The position numbers and the translations under genes are program-made. The notes below the pieces were generated by a model. It saw only the letters and a list, made by a program, of their open reading frames with translations. It ran no database searches and was not told the origin of the DNA. A stretch of 64,000 bases of DNA from an uncultured Actinomycetes bacterium (lineage in GTDB: Bacteria; Actinomycetota; UBA4738; HRBIN12): contig CAWCPZ010000010.1 of the NCBI GenBank assembly GCA_963797635.1, forward strand, positions 204,909 to 268,908. Reading direction: 5' to 3'. This document shows positions 1 through 10,944 of the stretch, piece after piece (position 1 is the first letter of the stretch; each line of letters begins with the position of its first letter).

Positions 1-598
1 CACGGTGATGCCCTGGTCGTGCACCAAGCGCTGCAACGCCGCCACGACGTGTTCGGCGCCTTGCGGATCGAGCTGGGACGTCGGCTCGTCCAGCACCAGG
101 ATCCGAGGGCCGGCCGCCAGCGCCGCCGCGATCGCGACCCGTTGACGCTCACCGCCGCTCAACGTGCGGACGCTGCGGGCGCGCAACGGTTCGATGTCGA
201 GCAGATCGAGCGTCTCCTCCACGCGCCGGCGCATGTGCGCGGGATCGACGCCCAGGTTCTCCATGCCGTACGCGAGTTCGTCCTCGACGCGATCGAGCAC
301 GAACGAGGCGCCCGGATCCTGCGGCACGAACGCCACCGCGTCGGCGAGCTTGCGCGGCGGGAACTCCAGCGTGTCGCGACCGTCCACCGTCACCCGGCCC
401 CGGAAGGTTCCGCCGGTGAAGTGCGGCACCAGGCCGTTCGAGGCCCGCAACAAGGTGGACTTGCCGGCGCCGGTCGGGCCCACCGCCAGCGCGAACGTGC
501 CTTCGTCGATGTCGAGCGTGACCTCGGTGAGCGCGTCGCGCGACGTGTCCGGATAGCGGAACCGCACGTCCTCGAAGCGCAGGGCGTGATCGCTCATC
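1..598 (-). CDS. ECF/cobalt-type ABC transporter ATP-binding protein (EcfA/CbiO-like), 5'-partial at the window edge
   Basis: The reverse-complement translation gives MSDHALRFEDVRFRYPD...GPTGAGKSTLL...LSGGERQRVAIAAALAAGPRILVLDEPTSQLDPQG... with Walker A, ABC signature and Walker B motifs. The ATG lies at about 596-598 and the frame runs off the window start. It is not in the ORF track because it is open-ended. Confidence 0.8.
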
Positions 599-1379
599 CG
601 TCGGCCTTCTGCCGGGGGAGGACGCCGGGCACGGCCAGCAGGGCGATCGTGGCGAGCAGCACCGGCTCGGCGTCCGGCCAGGTGAGCGGGAACGTCGACG
701 GATGGAGGCCGCCACGCCCGGTGAACGCCGCCACCATGAACACCCCCGCCGCCACCAGGGCGCACACGGTCATGACCACGGCACCCGTGGACCATCGCGC
801 CGGCCGGTAGCGCGACCGTCGCCCGCGGCCGTGGCCCCGCGCGTCCATGCTCTCGGCGAGGGTCACGGCCTCGTCCATCCCGGTCTCCAACACGGGGACG
901 GCGAGCGCGGGGAGGGTTCGCCAGCCGGCGGTGCGCAGGCCCCGCATGCGTTGGGCCTCACGCACCTGGCCCACCATGGCGATCGTGCGCGGGGCGATCG
1001 AGAGCGCGAGCGCCGCCGCGAGCGCGGGCTCGTGGAACCGGCGCGGCGCCAACCGCACCACGCCGAACGGATCGGTCACCGCGTTGAAGGTGCCGAACAC
1101 CACCAGCAGGGTGGCGAGCCGCGCACCTTCCAGCGCCGCGAACGCCACGCTGCTGGCGTCGACCGTCCCGAAGAACACCAGCGCCGTGCGCACCGCCATC
1201 GTCACCAGCCCTGCGATCGCGAAGACCCGGAAGGAGCGAGCCATCGGCCCCGGGATCCGCTGCGCGGCGTAGACGAACCACGCCACCGCCACGATCATCG
1301 CCAGGTAGAACGGATCGGTCGTGGTGAACGTCACCAGCCCGGCGCAGGTCGCCCACACGAGCCAGGCCGCCGGGTGCAT
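594..1379 (-). CDS. energy-coupling factor transporter transmembrane protein EcfT (CbiQ family)
   Basis: 261-aa polytopic membrane protein with the EcfT-like C-terminal motif ...ESMDARGHG. Its stop overlaps the start of the downstream ATPase, as expected for coupled ECF T and A genes. Confidence 0.75.
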   Translation of the reverse strand: MHPAAWLVWATCAGLVTFTTTDPFYLAMIVAVAWFVYAAQRIPGPMARSFRVFAIAGLVTMAVRTALVFFGTVDASSVAFAALEGARLATLLVVFGTFNAVTDPFGVVRLAPRRFHEPALAAALALSIAPRTIAMVGQVREAQRMRGLRTAGWRTLPALAVPVLETGMDEAVTLAESMDARGHGRGRRSRYRPARWSTGAVVMTVCALVAAGVFMVAAFTGRGGLHPSTFPLTWPDAEPVLLATIALLAVPGVLPRQKADG

Positions 1380-1384
1380 CCTGC

Positions 1385-2290
1385 TATCCGCCTCCGCGGG
1401 AGATCTGTCGCCGTCGCAGGAACCAGCCGCCCGCGCCCAGCGCGGCGACCGCCACGAGGGCCAGCAGGGCGCCCATCGGAGGGCCGCCGCCGCGCGTCGT
1501 CGGCGACGCCGGCCGCCAGCGCGGTCACGGGCGAGGCCTCCACGACCTCACCGGTGGACGGATCCACCTGGGGGGAACGGTCCTTGGCGTCGTCTCCGTG
1601 GGACCCGTTCGGACCGGAGGACCCGTGGGGGGACGCGGACGCGTCGGTGCCGGGCGTCGACGTCGCACCGTCGGGTCCCGAACCGGTTCCTCCGGCGGTC
1701 CCGCCGTTCCCGTCGCCGTGCCCGCCGGTTCCACCGCCGTTGCCGTCACCGTCGCCACCTCCGCCGGGCGACGGTGGAGGCGTCGGTGACGGGGTCGAGT
1801 CCTTGCAGACGTCGTCGAACCCGAGCGCGGGCGGAGCGGCGTGCGTGGTGCCCGAGTCGCCCGAGCCCCACACCCACCCTTCCATGTCGCCGTCACCGAT
1901 CGAGGCCGAACCCGCCCCCGAACCGGCCCAGCTCCATCCGCCGGAGCCGTTCCCGTGCCAGTACCCCCAGAAATCCGGATAGGAGCCGAAGCAGTCGCCG
2001 CCGCTCGCGCCCACCCCGGCGAGCTGGCACACCGCCTGTCCACCGAACCCGAGCTGGTACTGCAGCCCGAACTGCGAGCCGGCGAGCTGCACCAGGTGGA
2101 TGCCGGTCACGCTCGATGCATCGAGGGCCACGCAATACGTCGTGGTCTGCGACCCCGTGTTCACGACGAGGGCCGCATGCGAGGCGCCGGACGCTTCAGC
2201 GGCGCACGCCGGAGCCGATCCCGCCACCGCCGGCGCCAAGGCCGGGAGGGCGAGGATCAGACCGAACGTGAGCGTCCGCAGGCGACGCAT
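1385..2290 (-). CDS. SCO2322-family secreted Gly/Pro-rich protein with a C-terminal membrane anchor; apparent frameshift near 1470
   Basis: N-terminal signal peptide (MRRLRTLTFGLILALPALAPAVAG), a conserved HAALVVNTGSQTTTYCVALD...FWGYWHG domain, then a Gly/Pro/Thr-rich linker. A neighbouring frame encodes a terminal TM helix (MGALLALVAVAALGAGGWFLRRRQ) followed by a stop, so the printed ORF probably has a 1-nt indel. Confidence 0.55.
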
Positions 2291-2293
2291 GGC

Positions 2294-3292
2294 TCAGCAG
2301 GCCCCCGTCGCCGGCGCCGGCCCCGCGACGGGCCCGCTCAGCGGGAACGGCGTGCGCAACAGCCCGGGGATCGCGCCGATCGTGGCTCCCACGTCGGGAT
2401 CGCCCTTCACGTCGCCGTCCCACGTGTAGGCCCACGCGCCGCATGCCGGGTACTGCAACGTGCGCAACGACTTCAGGCCACCGGTCGGGATCGGCTCGCC
2501 GCCGGCGATGTAGGCCTGGAGCACCAGGCCGGTCGAGTTCGCGTCGGTGGCGATGAACGCGGTCGAGTAGGACCAGCCGTCGTGGCCCGGATCGCGCACC
2601 GTCTCGAAGAACGCGAAGGGGTCCGATCCCCACGATGTGCGGTCAGCGGCAGCCAGCGCCTGCACGACGTAGGAGGTGGAGTTCGAATCCGAGGTGAAGA
2701 AGTCGGTGCCCGAACCGTCGTCGCAGTGGTCGTCGTCCGTGCCGGGCGCGTAGGGGGCATCGTAGGACCACCCACCGTCGGGGCACTGTGCGTCCAGCAG
2801 CCAGCTGGTGACGGACGTGGCGGGCTTGACCCCGGCGGCCTCGATCGCGAGGACGCCGAGCGCCTGATCGAACACCGCCGCGTCATCGATGTGCCCGTCG
2901 TTGCCGATCTGCGAACGGATCGCCTGCAGCAGGTTCGTGCCGCCGAAGGTGCGGGGGTCACGGCCGACGGCCGACGCCGCCATGACCACCTTGGCCTGCA
3001 GGCCCACGCCGGTGACGTTGCCCGCCGCCACCTGGCGGCGGAGGTAGCCGAGCGCCTCGCGCATCGCAGGGCGGCCGGACCCGGTGGCCACGAAGGCCAG
3101 GACCGCGTCGGCGGTCGACCCGATCGGTGAGAACGCCGGGATCGAGCCGTTCGGTCGCTGCATGCCGGCGATGAACCCGGTGCCGCGTTCGGCTCGCTGT
3201 TGATCGGTGAGCGCTGCCGACGCCGATGCGGGAAGCATCACGACAGCCAAGGACAAGCAGGCGGCGACGATGCGCCGAGCGTTCGGGGCCAC
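2294..3292 (-). CDS. prenyltransferase/squalene-oxidase repeat-containing secreted protein (terpenoid-cyclase-like alpha/alpha toroid fold)
   Basis: Start is GTG at 3292, preceded by the RBS GGAAAGGAG. The signal peptide is ...RRIVAACLSLAVVMLPASASA, and the body carries repeated QxxDGGW/GWSY-type motifs typical of prenyltransferase alpha-alpha repeats. The track's 2294..3340 ORF has an N-terminal extension I rejected. Confidence 0.7.
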   Translation of the reverse strand: MAPNARRIVAACLSLAVVMLPASASAALTDQQRAERGTGFIAGMQRPNGSIPAFSPIGSTADAVLAFVATGSGRPAMREALGYLRRQVAAGNVTGVGLQAKVVMAASAVGRDPRTFGGTNLLQAIRSQIGNDGHIDDAAVFDQALGVLAIEAAGVKPATSVTSWLLDAQCPDGGWSYDAPYAPGTDDDHCDDGSGTDFFTSDSNSTSYVVQALAAADRTSWGSDPFAFFETVRDPGHDGWSYSTAFIATDANSTGLVLQAYIAGGEPIPTGGLKSLRTLQYPACGAWAYTWDGDVKGDPDVGATIGAIPGLLRTPFPLSGPVAGPAPATGAC

Positions 3293-3414
3293 GAGTGGCT
3301 CCTTTCCGGGCGTCCATCGCGCCCTCACGGAACGGACCACCCGATGAGGATCGACGTCGGCGCCCGGATCGGCGCCGGCGGCCCGTCCCCGTTCCTCGAG
3401 GGTCGTTCAGCCGA

Positions 3415-3545
3415 TGCGTCGCGCAGGGCGGCCTGGCTCGCACACGTGACGCTGGTGAGCGCCGGTGTGCCTACAGTTGCGGGACAGCGCCGGAATCTGA
3501 CCGGCTTCGCCTCCGCGACGCGGTGTGTTCCGCACGCTAGCAGAC
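3415..3545 (-). ncRNA. cobalamin (B12) riboswitch in the leader of the ECF operon
   Basis: The minus-strand sequence ...GCGGAGGCGAAGCCGGTCAGATTCCGGCGCTGTCCCGCAACTGTAGGCACACCGGCGC...GAGCCAGGCCGCC matches the B12-element core (GGGAA..GGTGnnAnTCC..CnGnCCCGCnACTGT) and the 3' B12 box (GAGCCAGGnnnCC). It sits about 125 nt upstream of the GTG start at 3292, with a GC-rich hairpin (GGCGCCGATCCGGGCGCC) in between. Confidence 0.65.
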
Positions 3546-3733
3546 CCGCGCGGAGGCCCGCCACTCGTGCATGGGTTCACGGTTCCGGCCCGGCATCCGG
3601 ACCCAAGTCCCGACTTTCGACCTAGGGAATCGGGGTATCGCTGGACAGAGCCTCGGGTATAGGTTCGTGCAGAACGCACACGCGAGCCCGGCCCGGAACG
3701 CGGGTCGATCGCCGCGAAAGGAGCTTCTCCGAG

Positions 3734-5434
3734 ATGACCCGATACCTCTGCGTCGACCCGAGCCACACGCTGGGCGGTGAACCCGCTGCCATCGACCTGA
3801 CCGCCCAGGTCCGCCTCGAGCGCGAGTTCCTGCCGCGTGAATCCGCCTATCTCGCCGATTCCGGCGACGTGATCCGCCGGGTGAACGACCTCGGCGAGGT
3901 CGACGGCGCCCTGCGCGCGGCCGCCGTGCGCCGCATCCTCACCGGCACCACCACCCCGCTCGACGCGCCCGTGGTGTTGGTGGCCGGCGACCGGACCGAA
4001 CGCGTGCCCGGCCTCTACGAGATGGACGAACTCCGTCGCAGCGAGCGATCGGTGGCGTCCCTGCTCGATCGGTACGCCCAGACGAGCCTGGCCCGCGAAG
4101 GCTCGGAGGATCTCGTGGTGCTGCGCGATCAGCAGCCGCCCTTGCGACCGGACGGATCCACGGTGCAGCCCGGTCAAGGCCCCACCGTGCAGTCAGCACC
4201 CATCAGCCCCATGGTGGAGACGGTGTCGATCCCGGAGGTCCGGTCGGACGAGGCGATCGTGTTGCCGCAGGGCGTCTACCCCGTGCTCGAACTCGCGACG
4301 CGGCTCGCCGAAGCCGACGTCGAGACCGATTCGCTCGTCGACGTGATCCATGCCACGCCCTCGTACGGCTCGCTCGCCACCGAGGAGTCGCACCGTCCCT
4401 GGCGCGTGATCGTGGAGTGTCCCGTCGCCACCGGCGAACCGTTGACCCGTCACCAGATGATCTTCACGGGCACCGGCGAGACCGAACCCGTCGAGGTGCT
4501 CGGCACGCCCGCCGTCGGCAACGACGTGGTCCTGGACACCGCCGCCTCGAAGGAAGCGGTGATGCCGTTCCCGGCCCGGCGGGCCGAACGCGGTCTGCAG
4601 ATCGCATTGCTGGCTGCCGCGTTGATCGCGGCCGCCGTGCTCATCATCACCTGGATCTCCGGCGGGCTCGCGCTCGCGGTGCGGGAGACCCCCGTGTGGC
4701 TCGGCCTGTCGGTGACCCTGGGCGTCGCCGCGATGGCGGTGGGGTTGGTGGCGCTGGCGTCGCGGTCGGACGCCGAGGGCAACACCAACGACACGTTCGT
4801 GTTGCGCCGCCACTACGCGAGCCGCATCGACATGCTGTGGTACGCCACGCTGGCCACCGCCGTGCTGTTCTCCCTCTCGGTCGCCGCCGGCGTGATCCCG
4901 CCGATCCTGGCGTCCGAGACGCCGGTGCCGTCGGCGGCGATCACGTTCGACGCCGGCCGCGCGCTGGTGACGGCCACGGTGCAGGTCCAGACCCAGGGTC
5001 TGGCCACCGACCAACCGGTCACCGTCCAGATGCGTCAGTACAGCTCCGAGACGAGCAACGGCATCCTCATCGGTCTCGTCACCTCCACCGGCGATCCCTC
5101 CGGGGACACGGTGATCGGGGAGACGGTCTCGCTCGATGCCGGGGCTCGCTACATGAGCGTGCAGGTCATCATGGGCAACGATCCGGTGACGACGTGCACA
5201 CCGCTCGAAGCCGGCGGCCCAGGCTGCACCGTGGTGTCGGTGCCGCCGCTCGGCGCGGGCATCGTGCGGTTGGTGCCGGCCACCTCGGCGCTCGACGTGA
5301 TCGCGGCGACGGAGCCCACGACCAGCCCGGTCGTGCCGACGCCGTCCACCTCGGGCATCCCGACCCCGTCCGCCTCGGTGCCGACCTCGGCCGTCCCGAC
5401 GACGACGCTGAGCCCGTCCGCCTCGCCGTTCTAG
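3734..5434 (+). CDS. hypothetical membrane protein (cytoplasmic N-domain, 2 TM helices, extracytoplasmic domain, Pro/Thr/Ser-rich C-terminal tail)
   Basis: Single uninterrupted 566-aa ORF. Hydrophobic segments lie at about aa 290-340. The C-terminus is TTSPVVPTPSTSGIPTPSASVPTSAVPTTTLSPSASPF. No recognisable catalytic motif. Confidence 0.5.
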   Translation: MTRYLCVDPSHTLGGEPAAIDLTAQVRLEREFLPRESAYLADSGDVIRRVNDLGEVDGALRAAAVRRILTGTTTPLDAPVVLVAGDRTERVPGLYEMDELRRSERSVASLLDRYAQTSLAREGSEDLVVLRDQQPPLRPDGSTVQPGQGPTVQSAPISPMVETVSIPEVRSDEAIVLPQGVYPVLELATRLAEADVETDSLVDVIHATPSYGSLATEESHRPWRVIVECPVATGEPLTRHQMIFTGTGETEPVEVLGTPAVGNDVVLDTAASKEAVMPFPARRAERGLQIALLAAALIAAAVLIITWISGGLALAVRETPVWLGLSVTLGVAAMAVGLVALASRSDAEGNTNDTFVLRRHYASRIDMLWYATLATAVLFSLSVAAGVIPPILASETPVPSAAITFDAGRALVTATVQVQTQGLATDQPVTVQMRQYSSETSNGILIGLVTSTGDPSGDTVIGETVSLDAGARYMSVQVIMGNDPVTTCTPLEAGGPGCTVVSVPPLGAGIVRLVPATSALDVIAATEPTTSPVVPTPSTSGIPTPSASVPTSAVPTTTLSPSASPF

Positions 5435-5446
5435 CGGTGTCTCGGA

Positions 5447-6307
5447 TCAGGTGAGGCGCGGCGGTTCCTCGCCGCCGGCTTCGCCTTGGAGGAAGCGCTC
5501 GATCTCGGTGGCGAGTTCGTCGCCGGTCGGCACGCCCTCGCTGCCCGTCATCGACTCCAACCGGTCCAGGTAGGACCGCGCGTCCTCGTCGGCGTCGACG
5601 GCGGCGTCCAGACGCGTCCGCTGGTCGATCGCGGTCTCGGCCAGTTCGCCGAGCGGCACCTCGATGCCCAGGTGACGATCGAGCTGGGCCAGCAACGCGA
5701 TGGCGCCCGGCGCGAACGGTCCGCCCACGTAGTGGGGGACCTGCGCGTAGAACCCCACGGTGGGCAGGCCCGAGGACTGCATCGACATCTCCACCACGGA
5801 CAATGCGGCCGCCGGGACCCGGAGCAAACCGGCGGGGCCCTGTTCGACGTCGTCGGCCAGGAGGCCTTCGGCGGAGGCCGTGCCGAACACCGACACCGCG
5901 CGCGTGTGCGGGACCGCGGCGGGGATCGCGCCCAGGCTGATCCACTGCAGGGCGCCGAGCCGCAGCGCGATCTCGGACGCCGATGCCGCGAGTTCGCGCC
6001 AGCGGAAGTCCGGCTCGGGTCCCCGCAGCACCAGCACGTCGCGTCCGTCGATCGTGCGGCGTCCCACGGAGATCTCCGGCCAATCCAGATGGGTGAGCGT
6101 GCCGTCCACCACGTCCAGCACGGGACGCCGGGAGCGGTAGTCGAACACCGCGTCGGGATCGATCGTGGCGATCGTCTCGGCGCCTTCCGCCAGTCGTTCC
6201 GCCGCAGCCGATGCCGCGCCGCCCGCGTCGATCCAGCCGTCGAAGGCGCCCACGAGCACCGGCGCCACCAGGGCGGGGACATCGTCGCGGAGTCGGAAGA
6301 GCGTCAC
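5447..6307 (-). CDS. PAC2 (proteasome assembly chaperone 2-like) family protein
   Basis: MTLFRL...PVLVGAFDGWIDAGGAA... is the N-terminal signature of actinobacterial PAC2-family proteins. 286 aa. Confidence 0.75.
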   Translation of the reverse strand: MTLFRLRDDVPALVAPVLVGAFDGWIDAGGAASAAAERLAEGAETIATIDPDAVFDYRSRRPVLDVVDGTLTHLDWPEISVGRRTIDGRDVLVLRGPEPDFRWRELAASASEIALRLGALQWISLGAIPAAVPHTRAVSVFGTASAEGLLADDVEQGPAGLLRVPAAALSVVEMSMQSSGLPTVGFYAQVPHYVGGPFAPGAIALLAQLDRHLGIEVPLGELAETAIDQRTRLDAAVDADEDARSYLDRLESMTGSEGVPTGDELATEIERFLQGEAGGEEPPRLT

Positions 6308-8701: not shown

Positions 8702-9532
8702 CTAGCGCAGCGTTGCGGCATCGGCGAACGCGGCCGCACCCACGTGGCCGACCGTGCGGAAGCCCACGCGTTGGTACACCCGCGCGATGTCCTCGCCGCC
8801 CGCCGACAGGAACACCGTCCCCACCCCGCGATCGATGGCGTCCTCCACCAACGCCGAGGTCACCGCGGCCCCCAGGCCGCGTCGCCGGTAGGCCGGCAGA
8901 CACGCCACGCCGGTGATCTCCGTGGCGCCCCCGAAGGGCTGGTGGCTCCCACTCGCGACCGGGATCCCGCCGACGGTGGCCACCGCCATCGACGTGAACC
9001 CGTCGCGGATCCGGTCGGCCGTGAACTCGAGCGTGCCCGCGGGGATCGCCGCCGCGGCCGTGGGCAACGCCTCGATCCCGGCCTCACCCACATCGGTGCC
9101 CGGCGCGCCGAAGCCCACCGTGGCGACGGCGACGGCGGTCGCGAGGTCGTCCTCGGGGCCGACGATCCGGACGTCGACCTCCCCGTCCTCCGGGCCGACC
9201 GTTCGGAACCCGTCGAGCGGCAGATGCATCAGCGGCATCTCGCTCACCTCGAGCCCCGCGGCCTCCGTGGCGTCGCGGACCCCGGGGGCGAGGTCGGCCA
9301 CCCATTCGAACTCCTGCGGCTGGCCGAGTTCGCGTTGGCGGGCGAGCACGGCTTCCACGCTGTCCACGTCGAACTGGGTCTGGCCCGGCGTCGGTCGCGC
9401 GTAGTAGCGCCACCCGTTGCCGGTGTTGATGAACAGGGTGAAGGGGCCGAACTCCTCGGTGATGGTGACGCCGCGCGGCACACCGTCGAGGTAGGCGTCG
9501 ATGCGCTGCAGGAGCGGGTTGGCTTCGGCCAT
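8702..9532 (-). CDS. GNAT family N-acetyltransferase (two-lobed)
   Basis: The C-terminal half carries an acetyl-CoA binding motif (GVACLPAYRRRGLGAAV). 276 aa. Confidence 0.7.
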   Translation of the reverse strand: MAEANPLLQRIDAYLDGVPRGVTITEEFGPFTLFINTGNGWRYYARPTPGQTQFDVDSVEAVLARQRELGQPQEFEWVADLAPGVRDATEAAGLEVSEMPLMHLPLDGFRTVGPEDGEVDVRIVGPEDDLATAVAVATVGFGAPGTDVGEAGIEALPTAAAAIPAGTLEFTADRIRDGFTSMAVATVGGIPVASGSHQPFGGATEITGVACLPAYRRRGLGAAVTSALVEDAIDRGVGTVFLSAGGEDIARVYQRVGFRTVGHVGAAAFADAATLR

Positions 9533-9585
9533 GCGTGCAGGCTACGAGGTCGGCGATGTCGTGGCGGCGGACTAGCATCGGCGGC

Positions 9586-10017
9586 ATGAGCGTTCCGGCC
9601 AAGATCAACATCGTCACCCTGGGGGTCGCCGACATCGAACGGGCGGCCGCGTTCTACTCCGCGCTGGGGTGGGAACGATGCGCTTCCGGTGGTGACGAGA
9701 TCACCTGGTTCCGCACCAACGGCGCCTACCTGGGGTTGTTCGGCTACGCCTCGCTGGCGGCCGACGCCGACCTGCCTCCGGAGCCTCGCGCGCCGTTCGG
9801 CGGCATCACGCTGGCGATCAACGTCGAGGCCGAGCAGGCCGTCACCGACGCGCTCGATGCCGCGGTCGCCGCGGGCGGCACGCTGCTGAAGGCCGCCGAA
9901 CGCATGGACTGGGGCGGGTTCTCCGGCTACTTCGCCGATCCCGACGGGCATCCGTGGGAGGTCGCCTTCAACCCGTTCTTCCCGATCGGGGCCGACGGGT
10001 CGATCACGATCGACTGA
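9586..10017 (+). CDS. VOC (glyoxalase/bleomycin-resistance/dioxygenase) family protein
   Basis: Start is the internal ATG (MSVPAKINIVTLGVADIERAAAFYSALGWE...). The beta-alpha-beta-beta-beta module pattern matches the VOC fold. Confidence 0.75.
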   Translation: MSVPAKINIVTLGVADIERAAAFYSALGWERCASGGDEITWFRTNGAYLGLFGYASLAADADLPPEPRAPFGGITLAINVEAEQAVTDALDAAVAAGGTLLKAAERMDWGGFSGYFADPDGHPWEVAFNPFFPIGADGSITID

Positions 10018-10020
10018 GCG

Positions 10021-10944
10021 TCAGTACCGGGCGCCTTCGGCGACGGGCAGCGCGTCCAGATCGGCCAGGTCCTCGGGTGAGAGCACGAGGTCGCCGGCGG
10101 CCAGGTTCTCCTCCAGGTAGCGCCGACGCTTCGTGCCGGGGATCGGCAGCACGTGCTCGCCCTGGGCCAACGTCCACGCGAGCGCGACCTGCGCGGGCGT
10201 GGCGCCCACGCGTTCGGCCACCTCGCGAACCCGCGCCACGATGGCCTGGTTCGCGTCGACCGCCTCGGCGGTGAAGCGCGGATTGTTCGACCGGAAGTCG
10301 GACTCGTCGAAGCTCGCCGCCGAGATCGCCCCCGTGAGGAACCCGCGCCCCAGCGGGGAGAACGGCACGAACCGGGCGCCGTGCTCGGCGCACCAGGGCA
10401 CGATGTCCGCGAGCGGATCGCGCGTCCACAGGCTCATCTCCGATTGGATCGCCGCGACCGGATGGATCGCGTGCGCCCGTTCGGCCTCCGCGACCGTGAC
10501 CTCCGAGAGCCCGAGGGCTCGCACCTTGCCGGCGCCGACGAGTTCGGCCATCGCGCCCCAGGTCTCTTCGACGGGGACGTTCGGATCGATGCGGTGGAGG
10601 TAGTAGAGGTCGACCACATCGGTGCGCAGCCGTCGGAGGGAAGCGTCGATCGCCGACCGCACGTGTTGAGGGCTCGCGTCGCGGTCGAGCGGGTAGCCGC
10701 CGTTCGGTCCCACGAGCAGGCCCACCTTGGTGGCCACCTCCACGCGGTCGCGGCGGTCGTGGATGGCCGCGCCGACGAGCTCCTCGTTGGAGAACGGGCC
10801 GTACACATCGGCGGTGTCGAGCATCGGGGCACCCAGGTCGATGGCGCGGTGGATCACGTCGACCGGGTCATCGTCGGCCTCGGCATCGACGTAGCCGAAG
10901 CTCATCGGCATGCACCCCAGCCCGATCCTGGCGGTTCCTCCCAT
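10021..10944 (-). CDS. aldo/keto reductase
   Basis: 307 aa with AKR signatures (DTADVYG, ...LYYLHRID..., GLSEV..., IPGTKRRRYLEEN). Confidence 0.9.
   Translation of the reverse strand: MGGTARIGLGCMPMSFGYVDAEADDDPVDVIHRAIDLGAPMLDTADVYGPFSNEELVGAAIHDRRDRVEVATKVGLLVGPNGGYPLDRDASPQHVRSAIDASLRRLRTDVVDLYYLHRIDPNVPVEETWGAMAELVGAGKVRALGLSEVTVAEAERAHAIHPVAAIQSEMSLWTRDPLADIVPWCAEHGARFVPFSPLGRGFLTGAISAASFDESDFRSNNPRFTAEAVDANQAIVARVREVAERVGATPAQVALAWTLAQGEHVLPIPGTKRRRYLEENLAAGDLVLSPEDLADLDALPVAEGARY

Follow-up and report, generated by a model that had tools for sequence, protein, structure and literature searches.

Introduction

In cobalamin riboswitches of class II (Cbl-II), only a short bulge or mismatch (J1/3) separates P1 from P3, and P6 carries a short hairpin; the class includes both adenosylcobalamin (AdoCbl)-selective (IIb) and hydroxocobalamin (HyCbl)- or methylcobalamin (MeCbl)-selective (IIa) members (PMC7367189). 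In the Mycobacterium tuberculosis metE riboswitch, it was shown experimentally that a kissing loop blocks the anti-anti-translation initiation region (anti-anti-TIR) and reinforces the pairing of the anti-TIR with the TIR (PMC11260477). In acI Actinobacteria, energy-coupling factor (ECF) transporter modules are found behind cobalamin and AdoCbl riboswitches (PMC5301498). Here we describe a minus-strand RNA element, and the operon behind it, near the start of a 64,000-nucleotide (nt) stretch of DNA from an uncultured Actinomycetes bacterium (contig CAWCPZ010000010.1, positions 204,909 to 268,908; the whole stretch is called the window). The original prediction, made from the sequence, placed a cobalamin riboswitch in the leader of an ECF transporter operon at this site, and an Rfam match, a survey of related loci and covariation of the helices all bear it out. 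We consider it very probable that the leader works as a cobalamin riboswitch and controls the operon. The RNA and the operon both belong to kinds that are already known, and the result is a solid annotation, not a new type of element.

The element shares with the class I (Cbl-I) riboswitches of the Rfam family RF00174, such as E. coli btuB and the T. tengcongensis structure 4GMA, the J3/4 sequence GCGAA, P4/L4, the P5 loop CCC, the J5/6 sequence AACUGUA, the B12 box (GAGCCAGG..CCUGC) and the four-way junction. It differs from them in having neither the P2 loop-stem-loop nor P7-P11, and a 33-nt P6 hairpin stands in place of 62 model positions. With the Cbl-II riboswitches (RF01482, IIb, and the env8-type AdoCbl-variant, IIa), it shares the fused P1/P3 arm, a small internal mismatch and a short P6. 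The element also has a P13 hairpin on its 3' side, the loop of which contains CGAGG and agrees with the RF01482 consensus. The junction and the B12 box in the window fit RF00174 better. In the M. tuberculosis ppe2 riboswitch, too, P1 and P3 form one fused arm and P6 is truncated, and both ppe2 and metE are actinobacterial, GC-rich translational OFF switches (PMC11260477), as the window element would also be. In contrast to ppe2 and metE, the element in the window would regulate a transporter operon, and no upstream open reading frame (ORF) is evident there.

Of the transport systems, ECF-CbrT (L. delbrueckii) is not known to have transcobalamin-like accessory proteins. ECF-CbrT and the acI modules resemble the importer proposed here in being linked to B12, and the acI modules follow the same riboswitch-plus-ECF logic (PMC5301498). 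The L. sakei lsa1836-1840 cluster also combines an ECF module with two extracytoplasmic transcobalamin/haptocorrin-like proteins (a prenyltransferase-like alpha protein and a beta protein); it differs in belonging to another phylum and in having heme as the proposed cargo, and no riboswitch is described in the text consulted (10.1101/864751).

Results

Identification of the element in the window

Direct reading of the minus strand showed GAGGCGAAGCCGGTCAGATTCCGGCGCTGTCCCGCAACTGTAGG, the B12-element core quoted in the original prediction, at 3513..3470 and a B12 box, GAGCCAGGCCGCC, beginning at 3439, both at the place predicted for them. The search with Rfam release 15 agreed, returning RF00174 (Cobalamin) at 3505..3432 (-) with 31.5 bits, which is exactly the gathering score (31.5), and with E-values of 3.2e-4 over the 64-kb window and 2.8e-6 over a 551-nt region. 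This was the sole Rfam match within the whole window; two matches of lower score from the same clan were suppressed, the RF01482 match being out-competed within the clan. The alignment is local, covering model positions 51-163 of 189 with 62 model positions in P6 replaced by 23 nt, because the element has neither the P2 arm nor the large P6 extension. A local match with a score only at the threshold is weak when taken alone, and to that extent it speaks against the assignment; what lifts the element above chance is its presence before the orthologous gene in nearly all related loci, together with the covariation of its helices. The features of the leader and the operon are collected in Table 1.

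Table 1. Coordinates of the leader elements, the operon genes and an RNA found in related loci
Feature	Position	Strand	Basis or remark
Functional RNA	~3527..3290	-	The upper bound originally predicted, 3580, takes in the promoter too
Putative extended -10 element TGC-TAGCGT (TGn + TANNNT)	3534..3542	-	Conservation in alignment A2
Aptamer core, fused P1/P3 arm closing the P3-P6 four-way junction	3416..3521	-	RF00174 match, covariation
P4/L4 hairpin GCCGG-UCAGAUU-CCGGC	3489..3505	-	RF00174 P4, posterior ~1; stem invariant in 57 leaders
P5/L5 GC-UGUCCC-GC	3479..3488	-	Invariant in 56 of 57 leaders
J5/6 and P6: AACUGUAGG, then a short hairpin (33-nt insert replacing P7-P11)	3441..3478	-	Rfam alignment, covariation
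B12 box GAGCCAGGCCGCCCUGC	3423..3439	-	RF00174 consensus ~152-163; nearly invariant in 57 leaders
GAACGAC, proposed anti-anti-TIR	3402..3408	-	Can pair with GGUCCGUUC at 3338..3330
P13-type hairpin CCCU-CGAGGAAC-GGGG	3387..3402	-	RNAalifold; 98% paired
Variable GC hairpin GGCGCC-GAUCCG-GGCGCC (GGCGCCGATCCGGGCGCC)	3359..3376	-	Free variation in sequence and in length; lowest conservation in the leader
CU-rich stretch GAUCCUCAUC	3352..3343	-	Exact anti-Shine-Dalgarno sequence in some leaders, e.g., L044 (CUCCUUUCCGGG)
Proposed anti-TIR GGUCCGUUCC	3338..3329	-	CGUUCC at least 90% conserved
Hairpin GGGCG-CGAUGGA-CGCCC abutting the Shine-Dalgarno sequence	3308..3324	-	99.3% paired; nearly invariant, including the loop, in 57 leaders
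Translation initiation region: Shine-Dalgarno sequence GGAAAGGAG (3307..3299), 6-nt spacer, GUG (3292..3290)	3290..3307	-	Direct reading
Gene 1, secreted 332-aa (alpha/alpha)6-barrel protein	2294..3292	-	Proposed transcobalamin alpha-domain-like partner
Gene 2, signal peptide, ~130-aa transcobalamin beta-domain-like fold, Gly/Pro linker, C-terminal transmembrane anchor	1384..2290	-	
Gene 3, ECF T-component (CbiQ-like), 261 aa	594..1379	-	PF02361, E 1.1e-3, below cut-off; synteny in 68/68
Gene 4, fused double ECF ATPase, N-terminal 199 aa	1..597	-	TIGR04520, 1.3e-48; PF00005, 1.6e-25; cut by the window edge
RNase P RNA, locus L052	6383-6761		
RNase P RNA, locus L061	7597-7954		
RNase P RNA, locus L063	5885-6307		
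RNase P RNA, locus L064	5981-6383		
RNase P RNA, locus L073	7517-7895		

Conservation and covariation of the leader

One genome per species was scanned, which gave 80 loci encoding relatives of the first gene of the operon (gene 1) at 38-93% identity. Using nhmmer, we found a homologue of the window element on the same strand in 77 of the 80 loci. The end of the element lies 100-125 nt before the gene 1 start across these loci (108 nt in the window). One of the three other loci came without upstream sequence, another (L032) matched RF00174 with 91.8 bits, and the third (L024) carries a long-P6 motif. Among the 20 shortest loci, Rfam called a Cobalamin-clan riboswitch in 11, with top RF00174 scores of 91.8 and 90 bits, and RF01482, the AdoCbl model, was the best-scoring model in L072 and L052.

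A consensus fold was then derived with RNAalifold from a 57-sequence leader alignment (A4). Standard pairs occupied 96.8% of the cells on the A4 structure, compared with 37-44% when the partners were slid by 1-3 columns, and the covariation score was 0.150, against 0.02-0.05 in the slid controls. Changes on both sides were found in 20 pairs, compared with 7.3 +/- 1.3 in column shuffles, and none of 500 shuffles was as high. The compensatory changes were concentrated in the outer arm and in P6, while P4, P5/L5, J5/6 and the B12 box were essentially invariant. In the outer helix, GCGUCGCG (3521..3514) pairs with CGCGACGC (3423..3416) over 8 bp; in the inner arm, AGGCG (3512..3508) pairs with CG-CCU (3430..3425) past a G/G mismatch. 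Compensatory change was seen in 4 of 6 pairs of helix 1, for example, U-A to C-G in 13 sequences, and in 2 of 5 pairs of helix 2. In P6, compensatory sequences numbered 20 for the pair 65:102, 7 for 66:101, 4 for 67:100 and 16 for 68:99.

All of P3-P6 was predicted in the consensus, although the invariance of P4 and P5 is uninformative on their pairing. Folding of P2-P6 had been expected at the outset; P3-P6 fold with covariation, and the lack of P2 is what a class II element would normally show. A point on the other side is that the leader sequences are kin to each other and phylogenetically non-independent. When column covariation was scanned blindly, all against all, the aptamer helices came out, whereas the long-range helix of the expression platform was missed because of gapped columns, so that a register-anchored test was needed.

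The borderline Rfam match could also be taken as erosion, the element being a decayed, nonfunctional relic of a riboswitch. The score exactly at the gathering threshold, the alignment of model positions 51-163 only, and a frameshift in gene 2 of the window would fit this. However, the reduced architecture is kept in more than 50 divergent leaders, with an invariant junction and with compensatory changes in P1/P3 and P6; the platform is conserved down to the Shine-Dalgarno (SD) sequence; and the near-identical locus L001 has an intact operon. A relic is therefore, in our judgment, highly improbable.

Aptamer architecture, promoter region and ligand class

By the definitions of PMC7367189, the window element has Cbl-II, not Cbl-I, architecture. 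The Cbl-I hallmarks, a P2 loop-stem-loop between P1 and P3 and a P7-P11 extension, were not found in the window element. Located 3' of P6, GAGCCAGGCCGCCCUGC has the form of a B12 box (rAGYCMGgAgaCCkGCc-like). The L5 CCC would be the expected kissing-loop donor, going by its role in described riboswitches (PMC11260477, PMC7367189).

Conservation upstream of the arm was analyzed with a separate alignment, A2. There, conservation of at least 90% is confined to the four fixed letters of G-n-T-A-n-n-n-T, and the rest is variable; the -10 box variants among the leaders include TAGCGT, TAGGAT, TACGAT, TATGGT, TAAGGT and TATCGT. This pattern matches the actinobacterial extended -10 pattern, not an RNA helix, and would place the transcript start near 3527. 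Such a start, ~6 nt before the outer helix of the aptamer, would therefore leave no space for a P2 arm. A promoter scan with the E. coli consensus gave no match, and the putative promoter has conservation as its one line of evidence, which counts against it. As a separate candidate, P1/P2 helices upstream of 3521 were considered and rejected: the global Rfam alignments of the relatives are full of noncanonical pairs there, and the conserved TANNNT is promoter-like, not helical.

The original prediction named adenosylcobalamin as the controlling ligand. The cobalamin riboswitch stands, but AdoCbl specificity is not established, as the Cbl-II class holds both IIa and IIb members (PMC7367189). 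The best model is RF00174 for the window and RF01482 for its relatives L052 and L072, and secondary structure does not predict selectivity. A real switch with methyl- or hydroxocobalamin as its ligand (Cbl-IIa-like) is a possible but doubtful alternative. The element has neither the P2 arm nor P7-P11, which form the adenosyl pocket in Cbl-I (PMC7367189), as this alternative would have it; yet AdoCbl is bound by Cbl-IIb RNAs of equally reduced periphery (PMC7367189), for the leaders of L052 and L072 the AdoCbl model gives the highest score, and the window shares the 3' hairpin motif of RF01482. Moreover, five orthologous leaders are in the Cbl-I style, and the same physiological signal is therefore expected.

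Those five leaders (L024, L026, L032, L043 and L080) carry an insert of ~70 nt with CCACUGG...CCCGGGAAGG and a canonical GAGCCAGGAGACCUGCC box. In more than 60 orthologous leaders, on the other hand, the P6 insert is 12-48 nt long and freely variable in sequence. The same five-gene operon is thus found behind a Cbl-I-style riboswitch (5 loci, RF00174 near 90 bits) or, mostly, behind a short-P6 Cbl-II-like riboswitch. Mixed leaders at an orthologous locus suggest interconversion of the classes.

Expression platform and proposed switching

Between the aptamer and gene 1, the conserved blocks are GGCUGAACGAn(C)CCUCGnGG, CGUUCC, the hairpin GGGCG-CGnGGA-CGCCC and the SD sequence GGAAAGGAG; the SD sequence and its spacing are conserved in 56 leaders. 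CGUUCC is preceded by a segment complementary to the first conserved block, and in the RNAalifold consensus fold GUUCC is paired with GGAG of the SD sequence. The 5-bp core GAACG/CGUUC of the long-range helix is invariant except for one leader with the compensatory GAGCG/CGCUC. In the register of GAACGnn/nnCGUUC, positions 6-8 were paired in 125 of 171 cases, compared with 103.7 +/- 3.5 for shuffled partners, and none of 2,000 shuffles was as high. Compensatory change was found in 5 of the 7 pairs of this helix (helix 6).

The hairpin that follows the aptamer was assigned as P13/L13 because the same motif, as it occurs in L072, lines up with the 3' hairpin that belongs to the RF01482 aptamer model (consensus cugCuUCGAGGcAAaGcag). 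L13 (3398..3391) could be the loop that L5 kisses: L5 has its CCC, which does not vary, and P13 with its CGnGG loop is present. A second candidate partner is GGAC in the 3308..3324 hairpin. As an observation in its own right, the 3308..3324 hairpin hardly varies in sequence, even in its loop, unlike a plain spacer hairpin, which should drift, and its GGAC could pair with GUCC of L5.

A switching pathway can be proposed from these elements. Without ligand, GAACGAC(CCUC) would pair with (GAGG)GUCGUUC, so that the anti-SD CGUUCC and the CU-rich stretch are held off the SD sequence. When cobalamin is bound, the L5 cytidines would kiss the P13 loop and stabilize P13. The 5' strand of P13 overlaps the extended anti-anti-TIR, and the anti-TIR would thereby be released to occlude GGAAAGGAG. 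The element would then be an OFF switch acting chiefly on translation initiation of gene 1, and lowered translation may secondarily permit Rho-dependent termination or mRNA decay. In this way, B12 sufficiency would shut off the operon for corrinoid capture and uptake.

The mean predicted SD accessibility in the 57 leaders was 0.55 with GAACG:CGUUC enforced and 0.34 with P13 enforced and GAACG single-stranded, a difference that is supportive, not decisive, since the effect is partly built into the constraint and equilibrium folding of GC-rich RNA is unreliable. The difference had the same direction in 46 of the 57 leaders and the opposite direction in 5, and the two constrained states were similar in energy, at 4.9 and 6.0 kcal/mol above the unconstrained minimum. 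Other results weigh against the pathway. The SD sequence was mostly paired in unconstrained equilibrium folding, and this was unchanged by capture of the G-rich block or by blocking of GAACG. In addition, no L5-L13 covariation was seen in the leaders, L5 being invariant.

A different partner, GGGGAC (3390..3385), was tried as the kissing partner that would free the CU-rich anti-SD sequence and was rejected: holding this block unpaired left the predicted SD accessibility unchanged (0.27 versus 0.24, with 13 leaders down and 7 up). GGGGAC is better read as the 3' strand of P13 because of the homology to RF01482. The metE-type switching model fits the leaders better than the model built on the G-rich block. 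Translational OFF control is the most likely mode, and we lean slightly toward the specific pathway given above.

Many Firmicutes cobalamin riboswitches are transcriptional. The original prediction noted a palindromic GC hairpin between the aptamer and the gene that could sequester or terminate; with its perfect 6-bp GC stem it might serve as the terminator of premature transcription termination. The palindrome is indeed present at 3376..3359. However, no other segment of the leader varies as much, it lacks a U-tract, and a scan of 3150..3800 turned up no terminator-like site, so the palindrome is neither a terminator nor the regulatory element. Rho-dependent termination following translational repression would still suit the translational model, and control by termination at the palindrome is, in our view, improbable.

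In the window at 3290..3302 (-) and in 56 loci, the first codons could often pair with the spacer between the SD sequence and the start (GCCAC/GUGGC, GCCC/GGGC, AGCA/UGCU). This start-codon hairpin signal was marginal, with a mean longest stem of 4.16 versus 3.89 +/- 0.10 for shuffled partners (3/500).

The regulated operon

On the minus strand, the operon genes leave little space between them; gene 2 begins 3 nt past gene 1, and the start of the ATPase gene overlaps the stop of ecfT, the T-component gene. The original prediction described a four-gene operon at 1..3292. There are five genes: the window cuts the ATPase gene, and L001 and all 67 evaluable loci show that the S-component gene lies on the far side of position 1. 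In L001, a 93%-identical locus, the full operon comprises gene 1, gene 2 (301 aa), EcfT, a 525-aa ATPase with two ATP-binding cassette domains, and an S-component matching PF12822 at 2.2e-10. The T-component, two ATPase domains and S-component of an ECF transporter are thus encoded together, the T-component and the first ATPase domain being in the window and the rest known from L001. Gene order was kept in 72/72, 68/68, 68/68 and 67/67 loci with enough downstream sequence.

The genes had also been called otherwise hypothetical, but the first two resemble the alpha and beta halves of transcobalamin. The family of gene 1 consists of ~333-aa proteins of uncultured Actinomycetota. The best Protein Data Bank (PDB) matches of the gene 2 domain are the beta domains of transcobalamin, haptocorrin and intrinsic factor, and its predicted fold is of the DUF4430 type that caps the corrin. 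By these modeled folds, gene 1 and gene 2 look like the two halves of a transcobalamin-type binder. Some of the protein evidence points the other way: the gene 1 fold is nearer to terpene cyclases than to cobalamin carriers, neither gene 1 nor gene 2 matches PF01122 or DUF4430 at the sequence level, and no solved PDB chain, ECF-CbrT included, is detectably similar in sequence to the S-component. A literature search on SCO2321-SCO2324 found nothing relevant.

In the window, gene 2 (ORF 2290..1331; corrected stop 1386..1384) has a +1-nt insertion in the GCGGCGGCGG run at ~1493. Compared with L001 and with P0121, a metagenomic protein of 99% identity, the reading frame is shifted after residue 266, which puts the membrane anchor out of frame. 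Either the assembly is in error here or gene 2 is truly a pseudogene.

The T-component and the ATPase resemble CbiQ and CbiO, and cobalt transporters are commonly under B12 riboswitches. The cargo could accordingly be cobalt ions or heme, with the riboswitch coupling metal or tetrapyrrole supply to B12 status, and it also tells against a corrinoid that the homologous L. sakei system is argued by its authors to import heme (10.1101/864751). Nevertheless, the S-component is of the PF12822 type, not CbiM/CbiN, the gene 2 domain is closest in the PDB to beta domains of cobalamin carriers, and the corrinoid itself is indicated by the cobalamin riboswitch that stands before the operon in essentially all loci that could be evaluated. 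Such a module is also retained by acI genomes without B12 synthesis (PMC5301498). In comparison with L. sakei, three features argue for corrinoid cargo: the ATPase is a fused A-A' protein, the genes stand in the order alpha-beta-T-AA'-S, and a riboswitch precedes them. We regard cobalt or heme as an unlikely cargo.

Neighboring genes

Divergent from the operon is a 566-aa ORF at 3734..5434 (+) with predicted membrane segments, no Pfam match above the cut-off, and a weak match to NrsF (E, 3e-3). It is adjoined by a PAC2-family gene at 5447..6307 (-) (PF09754, 1.5e-44), and neither has an obvious link to the riboswitch or the operon. In L001, the S-component gene is followed by Pyridox_ox_2 (PNPOx-like, flavin mononucleotide-binding fold) at 8843..9514 (+) and by a major facilitator superfamily transporter at 9511..10698 (+). 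In five related loci (Table 1), the operon is followed ~5 kb downstream by a bacterial class A RNase P RNA (237-279 bits); Rfam detected none in the 64-kb window.

Discussion

The full account, which joins the identity of the riboswitch, its mechanism and the operon regulated, is in our view likely to be right, a judgment weighted toward the claims of identity. The analysis directly supports the identity of the aptamer, its covarying helices, the long-range helix, the conserved platform, the synteny and the protein folds, from which ligand binding, the kissing partner, the switching direction, the promoter and the transported substrate are inferred. The most economical reading is that a two-polypeptide transcobalamin-type clamp feeds an ECF importer and is turned off when B12 is plentiful. 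In uncultured Actinomycetota, the most likely task of the operon is the capture and import of cofactors of the B12 type. A more specific proposal is that of a split transcobalamin, in which a secreted alpha-barrel and a membrane-anchored beta protein would clamp extracellular corrinoids and pass them to a dedicated ECF transporter with an S-component unrelated in sequence to CbrT, with corrinoid and not heme as the cargo and with leaders that show class interconversion. We hold the chances of this proposal to be evenly balanced.

The original prediction expected the riboswitch to give a corrinoid-related functional handle on the operon, and the riboswitch and the operon content together support that expectation. 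A "hypothetical" gene block in uncultured soil and freshwater Actinomycetota becomes a testable B12-acquisition system. For the annotation of such genomes, the lesson is that a threshold-level local RF00174 match can be a bona fide class-II-like switch. The more than 55 aligned leaders form a natural series in which the aptamer and the platform are conserved while P6 ranges from 12 to ~70 nt, the periphery and class changing under constant regulation of the operon.

The riboswitch also provides independent regulatory evidence on the cargo of systems that combine an ECF transporter with transcobalamin-like proteins, a point on which the one studied example leaves a choice between cobalamin and heme. 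If the proposal is true, the split transcobalamin would be the prokaryotic equivalent of the fold that carries B12 in vertebrates, and the near-universal riboswitch would identify corrinoids, not heme, as the cargo of the whole family of ECF transporters with transcobalamin-like proteins.

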